A DNA stretch of 4,718 bases from a virus (Duplodnaviria > Heunggongvirae > Uroviricota > Caudoviricetes). Positions 2,204-4,718 of this stretch are shown one piece after another. Made by a program: the position numbers and the translations under genes. Positions within the stretch are counted from its first letter, which is position 1; every line of letters starts with the position of its first letter. The notes under the pieces were generated by a model. It made no database searches. It saw nothing but the letters and a program-made list of their open reading frames with translations, and was not told where the DNA came from. The stretch lies in the IMG/VR virus record IMGVR_UViG_2778261352_000002. The stretch is one strand, 5' to 3'.

Positions 2204-2209
2204 GGTGTT

Positions 2210-2354
2210 CTGGTTTGTTACAAATTTATCTGAAGCAGTCATTGTTATAATTTTATTATTTGTATCTCTTGAGATTTCCTTGTTGGTTTTTCTCTCTGAT
2301 ATTTTTTTTCGGACCATTCTGCCCAAGGGCTAATTTCTTCAAAAGGTAATAATT
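2210..2354 (+). promoter_or_regulatory. Long 5' untranslated leader of the cold-shock gene (likely cold-responsive mRNA structure)
   Basis: About 145 nt between the predicted transcription start and ATG 2355. SD region AAAAGGTAATAATTATG resembles the cspA leader/RBS, and the coding start ATGTCTAACAAAATGACTGG contains a downstream-box-like sequence. Confidence 0.4.
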
Positions 2355-2567
2355 ATGTCTAACAAAATGACTGGTTTAGTGAAATGGTTTAACCCTGAAA
2401 AAGGTTTTGGTTTCATCACGCCGAAAGATGGCAGCAAAGATGTGTTTGTCCATTTCTCAGCAATTCAGAGCAACGATTTCAAAACATTAACTGAGAATCA
2501 GGAAGTTGAATTTGGTATTGAGAACGGACCTAAAGGTCCTGCCGCTGTTCATGTAGTGGCGCTTTGA
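2355..2567 (+). CDS. cspI: Cold-shock protein, CspA family (CspI-like), 70 aa
   Basis: ORF 2355..2567. [70 protein letters not shown] contains the RNP1 (KGFGFI) and RNP2 (VFVHF) motifs of the cold-shock domain. AAGG SD sits 8 nt upstream. Confidence 0.95.
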
Positions 2568-2600
2568 GGTAGACAATATTACAAACCATATTCACTTTAG

Positions 2601-2794: not shown

Positions 2795-2838
2795 GCTTGG
2801 TATCTATTCGATGGATACTCACATACTACGGTAACATC

Positions 2839-3069
2839 ATGAAAAAAATCATAGTTTTTTTTAACTCTGAACCTGCAGTGGTAGTGCCAGCGATGACTGG
2901 AGTTAACACCATCATGCGTGAATATCCAAATGGCGAAAAAACACACCTTACTGTAATGGCCGCAGGGTTTCCATCTCTGACCGGAGATCATAAAGTCATT
3001 TATGTAGCCGCGGATCGACATGTTACTTCAGAAGAAATTCTGGAAGCAGCAATAAGGCTCTTGAGTTGA
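2839..3069 (+). CDS. ynfN: Small hypothetical protein (up to 76 aa); positional equivalent of ynfN between cspI and gnsB; alternative starts at 2893 and 2914 (51-aa version)
   Basis: ORF in the 2797..3069 frame. The TTG at 2797 is unlikely; the first ATG is 2839 (no clear SD), and ATG 2914 has GGAG 11 nt upstream. The protein (MKKIIVFFNSEPAVVVPAMTGVNTIMREYPNGEKTHLTVMAAGFPSLTGDHKVIYVAADRHVTSEEILEAAIRLLS) is soluble-looking with no recognisable motif. Symbol assigned only by synteny. Confidence 0.5.
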   Translation: MKKIIVFFNSEPAVVVPAMTGVNTIMREYPNGEKTHLTVMAAGFPSLTGDHKVIYVAADRHVTSEEILEAAIRLLS

Positions 3070-3191: not shown

Positions 3192-3240
3192 TCGACTTAC
3201 TGTGTAACTGGAAAGTCATAACAGACTAAAAGAGGAAATG

Positions 3241-3414
3241 ATGAATATTGAAAACTTAAAAACAAAAGCAGAAGCAGATATTTCTGAATATATAACAAAA
3301 AAAATTATTGAACTTAAGAAAAAGACCGGGAAAGAAGTTACCAGTATTCAGTTTACCGCACGGGAAAAAATGACGGGTCTTGAAAGCTATGATGTCAAGA
3401 TTAATTTAATCTGA
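3241..3414 (+). CDS. gnsB: GnsA/GnsB-family small protein (57 aa)
   Basis: Not in the ORF track because it is short. ATG 3241 (a second ATG lies at 3238), AGAGGA SD at 3231-3236, stop TGA 3412-3414. Translation MNIENLKTKAEADISEYITKKIIELKKKTGKEVTSIQFTAREKMTGLESYDVKINLI closely resembles E. coli GnsB/GnsA as recalled. Confidence 0.85.
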   Translation: MNIENLKTKAEADISEYITKKIIELKKKTGKEVTSIQFTAREKMTGLESYDVKINLI

Positions 3415-3440
3415 TGTATTCAATAATAAAATTTATCCAT

Positions 3441-3466
3441 AAACCTCGTTTTTACGGGGTTTTGTT
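3441..3466 (+). terminator. Probable intrinsic terminator downstream of gnsB (short G/C stem with G-U pair, then T-tract)
   Basis: CCTCG (3444-3448) pairs with CGGGG (3455-3459) around a TTTTTA loop, followed by TTTTGTT (3460-3466). Lies 27 nt after the gnsB stop. Confidence 0.4.
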
Positions 3467-3528
3467 ATATTTGAATGGTTCCGAATATCTAAATCACAAT
3501 TGTTGATGGTTTTTATTAAACCAATGCA

Positions 3529-3557
3529 GTCCGGCTCAGGAGTGAGAGAAGCCGGAC
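3529..3557 (-). other. Stable stem-loop immediately 3' of the ydfO-like gene on the minus strand (possible transcript 3'-end structure or weak terminator)
   Basis: 8-bp G/C-rich inverted repeat GTCCGGCT (3529-3536) and AGCCGGAC (3550-3557) with a 13-nt loop, 9 nt beyond the minus-strand stop at 3566-3568. No clean U-tract on either strand, so terminator function is uncertain. Confidence 0.3.
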
Positions 3558-3565
3558 GTTATGGT

Positions 3566-3976
3566 TTAGCGTGGTAAGATCTGTGTAGTTTTCTGGATGC
3601 TTTCAGTAAATAGTAATGAATTATCAAAGGTATAGTAATATCTTTTTTGTTCGTGGATATTTGTAACCCACCGAAAAACTCCTGCTTTAGCAAGGTTTCT
3701 TCTGTATTCCTGAAATGTGATCTCTCTGGATTTCAGCTTATTAGAGGTCGTTTCTATAAGATGCCTATCCTTTGAAAATTTGACAGACACAATGTTTTTT
3801 AGGCCCTTTAATAACACTGTATTATCATTTTTTAATACAATATGAACATTCTCTGTGGCTAAATAGTAAATGTAATGTGAGACATTGTGACGTTTTAGCT
3901 CAGAATAAAACCATTGATAGTTTAAATCGTTTCGAACTTTATCAAATATTTGTTTAAAAATGACTACCTGATCCAT
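3566..3976 (-). CDS. ydfO: DUF1398-family protein (YdfO/YbcV-like), 136 aa, function unknown
   Basis: Minus-strand ORF 3566..3991. Preferred start is ATG 3976 ([14 protein letters not shown]...) because GGAAGG SD lies 7 nt upstream, whereas the ATG at 3991 has none. Length and sequence match the YdfO/YbcV family as recalled; a homologous gene occupies the same position left of cos in phage lambda. Confidence 0.85.
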
Positions 3977-4033
3977 AGATAAACCTTCCATGTGATATGA
4001 GGGGGCGTAGTCTGCACGATTATCTAAATTGCT

Positions 4034-4267
4034 TCAATCTGGTCTGACCTGTTTTCTGAGCAATTCAGTAATGTCACTCTTTTCTTTGTTTGCTTCAGAA
4101 GAAACTCTTTTTTCTGAGCACAGTCTCCGGCGGCAGGCTTCAATGACCCAGGCTGAGAAATTCCCGGACCCTTTTTGCTCAAGAGCGATGTTAATTTGTT
4201 CAATCATTTGGTTAGGAAAGCGGATGTTGCGGGTTGTTGTTCTGCGGGTTCTGTTCTTCGTTGACAT
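4034..4267 (-). CDS. ynfO: Small basic protein with ribbon-helix-helix-like motif (YnfO-like, 77 aa); putative DNA-binding protein
   Basis: Minus-strand ORF 4034..4267. MSTKNRTRRTTTRNIRFPNQMIEQINIALEQKGSGNFSAWVIEACRRRL has a basic N-terminal tail, then a beta-strand (RNIRF), helix A (NQMIEQINIALEQ), a Gly-containing turn (KGSGN) and helix B (FSAWVIEACRRRL), the Arc/MetJ/CopG pattern. The overlapping plus-strand ORF 4029..4295 looks like antisense noise. Confidence 0.7.
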   Translation of the reverse strand: MSTKNRTRRTTTRNIRFPNQMIEQINIALEQKGSGNFSAWVIEACRRRLCSEKRVSSEANKEKSDITELLRKQVRPD

Positions 4268-4436
4268 GAGGTTGTCCCGTATTCAGTGTCGCTGATTTGT
4301 ATTGTCTGAAGTTGTTTTTACGTTAAGTTGATGCAGATCAATTAATACGATATCTGCGTCATAATTGATTATTTGACGTGGTTTGATTGCGTAGATGCAC
4401 GTTGTGACATGCAGATGATAATTATTATCATTTTGC

Positions 4437-4443
4437 GGGTCCT
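4437..4443 (+). promoter_or_regulatory. cosQ-like element (GGGTCCT) upstream of cosN
   Basis: GGGTCCT lies about 24-30 bp upstream of the cohesive-end sequence, at the spacing where cosQ sits in phage lambda (recalled, not verified). Confidence 0.45.
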
Positions 4444-4466
4444 TTCCGGCGATCCGACAGGTTACG

Positions 4467-4478
4467 GGGCGGCGACCT
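4467..4478 (+). other. cosN: lambda-type 12-nt cohesive-end sequence GGGCGGCGACCT (terminase nicking site)
   Basis: Exact match to the lambda cohesive end, flanked by GATCCGACAGGTTACG (lambda right end) and CGCGGGTTTTCGCTATTTATGAAAATTTTCCGG (lambda left end). Right-arm and left-arm sequence are contiguous, as in a prophage or circular/concatemeric genome. Confidence 0.85.
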
Positions 4479-4514
4479 CGCGGGTTTTCGCTATTTATGA
4501 AAATTTTCCGGTTT

Positions 4515-4631
4515 AAGGCATTTCCGTTCTTCTTCGTCGTAACTTAATGTTTTTATTTAAAATACCCCCTGAAAAGAAAGGAAACGACAGGTGCTGAAAA
4601 CGAGCTTTTGGGCCTCTGTCGTTTCCTTTCT
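4515..4631 (+). promoter_or_regulatory. cosB: terminase small-subunit binding sites R3 (4519-4530), R2 (4575-4590, inverted) and R1 (4616-4631), with an A+T-rich IHF-site region (about 4540-4570) between R3 and R2
   Basis: R1 CTGTCGTTTCCTTTCT and R2 AGAAAGGAAACGACAG form a perfect 16-bp inverted repeat. R3 CATTTCCGTTCT shares the core. Arrangement and spacing to the Nu1 start (about 190 bp from cosN) match lambda cosB. Confidence 0.7.
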
Positions 4632-4655
4632 CTGTTTTTGGCCGTGGAATGAACA

Positions 4656-4718
4656 ATGGAAGTCAACAAAAAGCAGCTGGCTGACATTTTCGGCGCGAGT
4701 ATCCGTACCATTCAGAAC
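4656..4718 (+). CDS. nohA: Terminase small subunit (Nu1/NohA-type), 5' end only (first 21 codons; continues beyond the window)
   Basis: ATG 4656; translation MEVNKKQLADIFGASIRTIQN is identical to the N-terminus of lambda gpNu1 (winged-helix DNA-binding region) as recalled. Sits the expected distance downstream of cosN/cosB. Confidence 0.9.
   Translation, partial: MEVNKKQLADIFGASIRTIQN

Follow-up and report, generated by a model that had tools for sequence, protein, structure and literature searches.

Two small genes, ynfO and ydfO, lie one after the other beside the cohesive-end site (cos) in a 4,718-nucleotide stretch of DNA (hereafter, the window) from the Caudoviricetes record IMGVR_UViG_2778261352_000002, and the question they raise is whether they work together as one system. 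An initial annotation, made from the sequence alone, described them as a two-gene unit with the architecture of a type II toxin-antitoxin or phage-exclusion module, in which a small ribbon-helix-helix (RHH) DNA-binding protein, YnfO, precedes a DUF1398 protein, YdfO. It also stated that neither gene has an assigned function, and we likewise found no published paper that assigns one to ynfO or its counterpart ylcI in phage lambda and the DLP12 prophage, or to ydfO or its counterpart ybcV. Both genes occur in phage lambda and in the bacterial genome that has been studied most closely, and ylcI is one of lambda's last unassigned conserved genes; evidence against a toxin-antitoxin pair spares researchers a misdirected experiment.

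The window corresponds to the right end of a Qin-type lambdoid prophage and shows 99.4% identity over 4642 bp to the Qin prophage of Escherichia coli K-12 MG1655. The 702-bp stretch that holds the two genes was base-for-base identical to MG1655 ynfO (b4533, 77 aa) and ydfO (b1549, 136 aa), including the 57-nt gap between them, and both are already annotated E. coli prophage genes rather than a new feature. Positions 3400-4718, which include cos, the start of nu1 and both genes, showed 88.7-99.6% identity to lambdoid phage records, with 99.6% identity to phage PhiR42_1.

Separability of ynfO and ydfO

A tblastn search of 50,697 phage records detected the YnfO N-terminal domain in 153 records and DUF1398 in only 43, all of them lambda-like; 110 of the 153 records with the YnfO domain had no DUF1398. 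In HK97-type lambdoid loci from IMG/VR, ynfO was present in all 80, with no DUF1398 gene within 3.5 kb. The layout of these loci is lysis genes, ynfO (opposite strand), HNH endonuclease, terminase small subunit (TerS) and terminase large subunit (TerL), and the curated phage BP-4795 has the same one. In Qin-type loci, ydfO was directly adjacent to ynfO in 79 of 80. In lambda-type phages and in DLP12 of K-12, the order is bor(-), DUF1398(-), gp79/ybcW(+), ylcI(-), cos, with bor just left of the lambda DUF1398 gene, lambdap78. The initial annotation placed the same two genes left of cos in lambda: both families are indeed present there, but about 560 extra bp with the opposite-strand gene gp79/ybcW part them. 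The third DUF1398 gene of K-12, ycgX, adjoins bluR and has no partner of the DUF3950 (YlcI/YnfO) family, as was also noted previously (PMC3509220).

The C-terminal tail of YnfO showed the same independence. RHH antitoxins hold their toxins through this tail, and the tail of YnfO fails to track DUF1398: the partners of DUF1398 proteins that are 79% identical have tails unrelated in sequence and length. Two further features of toxin-antitoxin pairs were considered. The same-strand adjacent order with the small gene first was found in the window and not in lambda or DLP12, and joint inheritance was not found, the YnfO domain being common without DUF1398 and ycgX standing alone. The two genes are separable neighbours that probably evolve separately, and the interpretation as a toxin-antitoxin pair, an exclusion-type module or another obligate two-part system is not supported.

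The conserved N-terminal domain of YnfO

YnfO matched PF13132 (DUF3950; E 2.7e-21, 75.6 bits against a cut-off of 25) and the NCBIfam model NF041551 (YlcI_YnfO_N; 36.6 bits, cut-off 30). The family is small, with only 120 representatives (50% clustering) at E 0.001 among 1.8 billion proteins. Residues 1-50 were nearly invariant across homologues, and past residue 50 at least six unrelated sequences followed an identical N-terminal domain; the Qin-type tail (27 aa) was the longest seen, and the lambda-type YlcI tail has 15 residues and is unrelated to it. Over the first 50 codons, the Qin-type and HK97/Stx (Shiga toxin)-type genes showed 19-22 synonymous and 4-6 non-synonymous codon differences; therefore, conservation acts on the YnfO protein and not on the cos-proximal DNA. 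Judging from these differences, the two open reading frames (ORFs) are real genes and not chance ones, and the N-terminal domain is under strong purifying selection. The family consensus, K-x-I-R-F-P-h-x-L-I-E-x-I, about eight variable residues and N-F-S-A-W-V-x-E-A-C-x-x-K-L, was kept down to 32% identity. The N-terminal 50 residues are the conserved unit of the locus and, in the best explanation of this pattern, would be the working part of YnfO.

The position of the gene is equally constant. Whether the packaging module is of the Nu1/A type or of the unrelated HK97-like HNH-TerS-TerL type, ynfO is the final gene ahead of that module and runs antisense to the late operon. In HK97/Stx-type loci, only 41 bp separate its start codon from that of the divergent HNH gene (L087, 5301-5343; L165, 3459-3501), and any promoter of ynfO in these phages has to be located within the HNH gene. 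A good Shine-Dalgarno sequence, GAGGAAAG, precedes the HK97-type copy.

Distant relatives of YnfO (32-50% identity) were found, with unrelated flanks, in the regulatory zone of satellites that resemble phage-inducible chromosomal islands (PICIs). Pasteurella phage Pmp7 has a YnfO-family ORF (L164, 4853-5032, plus strand), and two IMG/VR satellites have one between Bro-N or AntA genes and the primase (L082 and L083, about 6001-6200, plus strand). In E. coli CP027459.1 (L166, 6380-7420; also L167 and L168), a PICI-like, helper-embedded satellite interrupts a prophage terL gene after codon 93; two YnfO-family genes lie next to the satellite's integrase, and the host prophage carries its own ynfO-HNH-terS. 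A 60-aa DUF3950 gene of the satellite diverges from the replication operon, and upstream of it two perfect GGTACGTACC palindromes flank a TATAAT, which by its sequence is the layout of an autoregulated repressor. A 120-aa satellite fusion protein (P0328) joins the YnfO domain to a TerS N-terminal DNA-binding domain that is 64-66% identical to that of the helper TerS. Locus searches with divergent members returned no locus for P0328 and two for P0345. This type of helper-embedded element has been described in a preprint (bioRxiv 10.1101/2022.07.18.500453), which makes no mention of DUF3950, ynfO or ylcI. These gene contexts support a DNA-binding regulatory role for the YnfO family and are silent on YdfO.

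The YnfO-family ORFs of Pmp7 and of the two IMG/VR satellites are unannotated, and each lies antisense inside an ORF of 224-257 aa without a Pfam match, the one in Pmp7 being annotated as a "transcriptional repressor." Either the long ORFs are mis-called or these are antisense overlapping genes. A relationship between YnfO and the PICI packaging-redirection protein Rpp was also considered and rejected, because Rpp has a winged-helix fold and 135-153 residues (PMC9026076).

We then asked whether YnfO is an RHH protein, as proposed in the initial annotation. A compatible pattern, hRhP-helix-G-x-N-F-S-helix, with the look of Arc/Mnt, was kept in the family to 32% identity. The initial annotation also proposed a structure prediction, and an AlphaFold2 (AF2) monomer built from a 19-sequence alignment had coil at residues 1-18 and helices at 19-32 and from 34 onward, with a predicted local distance difference test score (pLDDT) of about 80 in the core. 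This modeled secondary structure fits an RHH monomer. When a hidden Markov model (HMM) of the family was compared with the PDB, it reached the CopG-family RHH structure 9kkd in the expected register (E 0.53, not significant), and neither the full nor the domain-only alignment gave a significant PDB match with HMMER. The Pfam model RHH_6 was touched by one of 24 family members (E 0.092). With hhalign, the YnfO domain alignment matched Arc (1.6e-3), AmrZ (7.7e-3) and NikR (0.031), all in register, as was Mnt; this comparison, with RHH reference sequences (Arc, Mnt and others) entered by hand, is a lead and not a test. Based on the pattern, the AF2 secondary structure and the weak in-register matches, none of which is significant alone, we consider the RHH fold likely, short of demonstrated.

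Transcription signals, YdfO and the layout of the window

In this Qin-type arrangement, ynfO and ydfO are probably co-transcribed, because the spacer has no terminator, ydfO has its own Shine-Dalgarno sequence and a strong hairpin follows the ydfO stop codon. The fold of the spacer region (3970-4045) was -7.5 kcal/mol (z +1.6), with no stable hairpin. The hairpin after ydfO was computed at -21.9 kcal/mol (z -5.6), and none of 200 shuffled sequences folded as well. It likely ends the leftward transcript and would be common to the convergent gnsB; lacking a clean U-run, it is a putative terminator. The Shine-Dalgarno sequence of ydfO lies 7 nt ahead of the ATG, and an alternative in-frame ATG at 3991 would give a protein of 141 aa. 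Upstream of ynfO, the core of the candidate operator, ATCAATTA-N17-TAATTGAT, was present in the lambda/Qin-type loci examined and absent from the HK97-type loci (L084-L163); with 92% conservation across the entire spacer, its persistence proves little. Near cos, the only sigma-70-like match was on the plus strand at 4404-4431 (GTGACA-16-TATCAT, 10/12), directed towards cosN and nu1. Between cos and the start of nu1, positions 4575-4631 contain a 26-nt inverted repeat with 85% complementarity and a 5-nt loop.

A published binding site of PdhR lies within the last codons of ynfO, just 5' of ydfO, with a weak -10-like GATAAT downstream of it at 4019-4024. In DLP12, the mRNAs of ybcV and ybcW are about 10-fold lower in a pdhR mutant (PMC7660256). 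Given this box and the reported stress induction, ydfO probably also receives host input. An ionic liquid induced ydfO 12-fold by microarray and 117-fold by quantitative PCR (PMC4077768), and ydfO was one of four Qin genes that changed upon DicC overexpression (PMC11430063). Similarly, ybcVW rose within 5 minutes of DNase intoxication (bioRxiv 10.1101/2024.12.20.629666), and ybcV was among the 24 strongest copper-regulated genes picked for testing, 12 up and 12 down (PMC13618251). Two other reports were set aside. Protection against oxidative stress by YdfO overexpression (PMC4077768, citing Wang et al. 2010) is a gene-name mix-up, and we dropped it: Wang et al. 2010 (PMC3105296) reports YfdO of the CPS-53 prophage and never mentions ydfO. 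The essentiality of ydfO in transposon-directed insertion-site sequencing (PMC5821084) was not accepted as real, because the whole Qin prophage can be deleted (PMC3105296).

YdfO matched PF07166 (DUF1398) over profile positions 1-119 of 119 (1.5e-46, 157.7 bits), and 135 of its 136 residues matched the nuclear magnetic resonance structure PDB 2HH8 ("hypothetical protein ydfO"). The title of that entry names YdfO alone, suggesting that the protein was expressed without YnfO. The G+C content was 45-47% in ynfO and 29-33% in ydfO, a drop consistent with a mosaic joint at about codon 50 of ynfO and with ydfO being cargo imported from elsewhere. No toxin family was found for YdfO among Pfam, NCBIfam and PADLOC, and YnfO, YdfO, GnsB and the YnfN-like ORF had no match to the PADLOC-DB 2.0 defence models at E up to 1.

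In existing annotations, phrog_413 of PHROGs and RefSeq phage records label DUF1398 proteins "head protein," and lambdap78 is a "putative envelope protein"; we found no support for either label. The lambdap78 annotation has 177 aa from an upstream GTG, and most homologues begin at a conserved MAQV/MDQV, which gives 136 aa. A wider DUF1398 scan of genome contigs was discarded, since its patterns were too specific to the Escherichia phage subfamily and it mostly returned phage-lambda spike-in contamination. Assemblies of unrelated taxa (Pseudomonas, Kitasatospora, Brevibacillus, Flavobacterium and others; L175-L206) contain a lambda-type DUF1398 protein 79% identical to YdfO, and hundreds of metagenome contigs of about 3.5 kb in the European Nucleotide Archive carry the lambda right end. 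We suspect that these lambda-type hits are lambda control or spike-in DNA, whose noisy reads make both protein families look more diverse than they are.

The features of the locus are summarized in the table below. From left to right, the window begins with the lysis genes essQ, ydfR, rrrQ and an rzpQ-like gene, followed by cspI, a ynfN-like ORF and gnsB. Further right, the 12-nt cosN sequence is followed by nu1, as in a lambda-type cos region, and 199 nt separate ynfO from cosN. Both ynfO and ydfO are on the minus strand; therefore, the pair reads away from cos and nu1. The anatomy given in the initial annotation, namely the coordinates, the lengths, the 57-nt spacing, the ydfO Shine-Dalgarno sequence and the cos neighbourhood, agreed with our reading. 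Its accessory-gene hotspot between the lysis genes and cos was also borne out, with cspI, the ynfN-like ORF and gnsB there in the window and bor there in lambda.

Table. Coordinates of features in and around ynfO and ydfO (positions in the window).
Feature	Positions	Strand	Description
G+C-rich hairpin	3529-3557	-	Directly after the ydfO stop codon; computed fold
ydfO coding sequence	3566-3976	-	136 aa from ATG 3976; DUF1398; = K-12 b1549
ynfO/ydfO spacer	3977-4033	-	57 nt; contains the ydfO Shine-Dalgarno GGAAGG at 3984-3989
ynfO coding sequence	4034-4267	-	77 aa; protein begins MSTKNRTRRTTTRNIRF; DUF3950, YlcI/YnfO family; = K-12 b4533
Hypervariable YnfO C-terminal tail	4037-4117	-	aa 51-77; mosaic junction at about codon 50
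PdhR box	4037-4053	-	AACAGGTCAGACCAGAT; published genomic-SELEX (systematic evolution of ligands by exponential enrichment) site (PMC7660256), matched in the window sequence
Conserved YnfO N-terminal 50 aa	4118-4267	-	Basic arm, aa 1-12; putative RHH core, aa 13-50
Inverted repeat, candidate operator	4337-4369		ATCAATTAATACG-N7-CGTCATAATTGAT; 70-100 bp 5' of the ynfO start
cosN	4467-4478	+	GGGCGGCGACCT, 12-nt lambda cohesive-end sequence; read directly, lambda cos annotated in related records
nu1/nohA start	4656-4718	+	Terminase small subunit; ATG 4656; translation MEVNKKQLADIFGASIRTIQN; divergent from ynfO

Among the plus-strand genes left of the pair, the Rfam cspA thermoregulator (RF01766) was found at 2209-2594 (+) (108.7 bits, E 5e-28), spanning the 5' untranslated region and the coding sequence of the cspI-like cold-shock gene (2355-2567). 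The YnfN-like ORF (2797-3069, +; phrog_3425) lies just 5' of gnsB (3238-3414, +) on the same strand, and gnsB matched PF08178, "GnsA/GnsB toxin of bacterial toxin-antitoxin system" (3.3e-35). If any toxin-antitoxin-type annotation applies in the window, it belongs to gnsB and the YnfN-like ORF, and not to ynfO-ydfO.

Competing explanations and comparison with known systems

The explanation that we favour by a modest degree is that ynfO encodes an Arc/Mnt-like regulator and that ydfO is a swappable, AT-rich cargo gene, probably co-transcribed with it here. The Qin/lambda-type prophage would have here two accessory genes that evolve separately, both lying in the variable stretch from the lysis genes to cos and transcribed opposite to the late operon. 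The N-terminal 50 residues of YnfO would most likely fold as an Arc/Mnt-like RHH dimer on DNA, and YnfO would regulate transcription, probably from its own leftward promoter; ydfO would be set downstream of ynfO in some phages only. Several results weigh against this explanation. The AF2 model was modest (pLDDT 67 overall) and, being a monomer, did not show the defining beta-ribbon dimer; the ribbon arises only in the dimer, so that a monomer model is not expected to show it. No RHH match of YnfO was statistically significant: the domain-only HMM (HMMER) found no RHH protein in the PDB, and CopG, RelB and ParD scored no better in hhalign than the non-RHH controls (0.095 or worse). Promoter scans found no convincing minus-strand sigma-70 promoter 5' of ynfO, the best candidate matching 8 of 12 positions; the Shine-Dalgarno sequence of ynfO is poor in this phage; and the candidate operator is kept only among near-identical lambda/Qin sequences. 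A useful lead is nevertheless the N-terminal domain of YnfO, which is strongly selected, was fixed before two packaging types and recurs in satellite control regions.

Under the explanation closest to the initial annotation, YnfO would be the RHH antitoxin of a type II toxin-antitoxin or abortive-infection pair, repressing the operon and neutralising a toxin, YdfO, via its C-terminal tail. The order and sizes fit, with a small DNA-binding-like protein first, a larger one second and no terminator between them, and the longest tail is always found with a directly adjacent ydfO (the 79 of 80 Qin-type loci). We nevertheless consider such a pair very unlikely. The 153 records with the YnfO domain against 43 with DUF1398 (110 of the former without it), the 80 HK97-type loci with ynfO alone, the opposite-strand gp79/ybcW between the genes in lambda and DLP12 and the partnerless ycgX all contradict it. 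So do the hypervariable YnfO tail, with a lambda-type DUF1398 protein 79% identical to YdfO paired with a YlcI of short, unrelated tail, and the lack of any toxin family or PADLOC match. The naming of YdfO alone in 2HH8 points the same way, insofar as it suggests expression without YnfO, and lambdap78 was dispensable for lytic growth in a CRISPR interference (CRISPRi) screen (PMC10695390). At the opposite extreme, ynfO might not be a functional protein gene, its conservation reflecting a cis-acting DNA element beside cos. Lambda, DLP12 and Qin share an extremely conserved cos-ynfO spacer and ynfO 5' end, and ynfO here has a weak Shine-Dalgarno sequence and no clear promoter; however, the predominance of synonymous changes between the Qin and HK97 types (19-22 vs 4-6), the survival of the protein pattern at 32-50% identity in satellites with unrelated flanks and the good Shine-Dalgarno sequence of the HK97-type copy make this explanation hardly credible.

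Other explanations keep YnfO as a DNA-binding protein and differ in its target. YnfO may be a boundary or immunity-type repressor of the phage's own late region, similar to P22 Mnt/Arc, with ydfO as irrelevant cargo; in the lysogen, it could keep the terminase, HNH and ant genes, which moron promoters could otherwise drive, silent or insulated. The place of ynfO, always last before packaging and antisense to the late operon with two unrelated modules, agrees with this, as do the 41 bp between the HK97-type ynfO and HNH starts, the Ant, Bro-N or KilA-N genes near YnfO in Stx-type phages and satellites (PMC13612085), the best profile matches, which are to Arc, with Mnt in register, and the plus-strand morons cspI, ynfN-like and gnsB that read towards cos. 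However, neither lambda nor Qin has an ant gene here, no operator in common with the late region was found, and the layout differs from the divergent mnt/arc-ant arrangement, the idea being drawn from position. The CRISPRi result (PMC10695390) concerns lambdap78, a different, non-essential gene, and we found no published deletion or knockdown of ylcI itself. We regard a boundary repressor as possible, though rather unlikely. Cross-talk of YnfO-family proteins between lambdoid helpers and PICI-like or helper-embedded satellites, via mixed dimers or shared operators, seems improbable; here, packaging of the helper could be disturbed by the satellite protein that joins a YnfO domain to a TerS DNA-binding domain. 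YnfO relatives do occur in the regulatory zone of several satellites, one satellite lies inside terL of a prophage with ynfO-HNH-terS, and the TerS N-terminal domain of P0328 is 64-66% identical to that of the helper. Against this, the YnfO domains of helper and satellite share only 41-47% identity, the satellite palindrome GGTACGTACC was absent from all phage loci examined, and the known packaging hijackers (Rpp) are winged-helix and not RHH proteins (PMC9026076). A broader idea, which we hold to be doubtful, is that the 50-residue YnfO domain is a dedicated DNA-binding gatekeeper at the entry to the packaging module of lambdoid phages, irrespective of the module's type, and that satellites have taken this domain up, in one case fused to a copy of the helper's TerS DNA-binding domain. 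Through this small protein family, helpers and satellites might then sense or block one another's control of late genes or packaging.

The favoured explanation, an Arc/Mnt-like regulator followed by cargo, was finally compared with known systems. The K-12 Qin copies of ynfO and ydfO do not differ from those in the window, having the same 702 bp, the same spacing and the neighbours nohA and gnsB. In DLP12 and lambda, ylcI and ybcV/lambdap78 differ in the ybcW/gp79 gene and the approximately 560 bp between them, and in the different, shorter tail of YlcI. YnfO resembles P22 Arc and Mnt, CopG, AmrZ and the NikR N-terminal domain in its size and basic N-terminal arm. As in Arc/Mnt-type proteins, an N-h-R-h-P strand motif is followed by two predicted helices joined by a G-x-x-x-S turn, and YnfO aligns with Arc over 35 residues almost without gaps, with a similarity below significance. 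The genomic layout differs from that of P22 immI. The likeness to RelBE, ParDE and KacAT is that a small putative RHH gene precedes a larger gene on the same strand, apparently in one transcript; unlike those systems, the pair here is not conserved as a unit, has no known toxin fold or family and has a tail that does not track the putative toxin, and its gap is 57 nt, whereas the genes of those systems usually overlap or have a short gap. The lambda morons bor and lom offer a further comparison, the general principle of lambdoid moron genes having been described previously (PMC7067206). Expression in the lysogen and benefit to the host are only putative for ynfO and ydfO, but the two genes share with bor and lom the same region, an orientation opposite to late transcription, AT-richness, variability between phages and dispensability for lytic growth.

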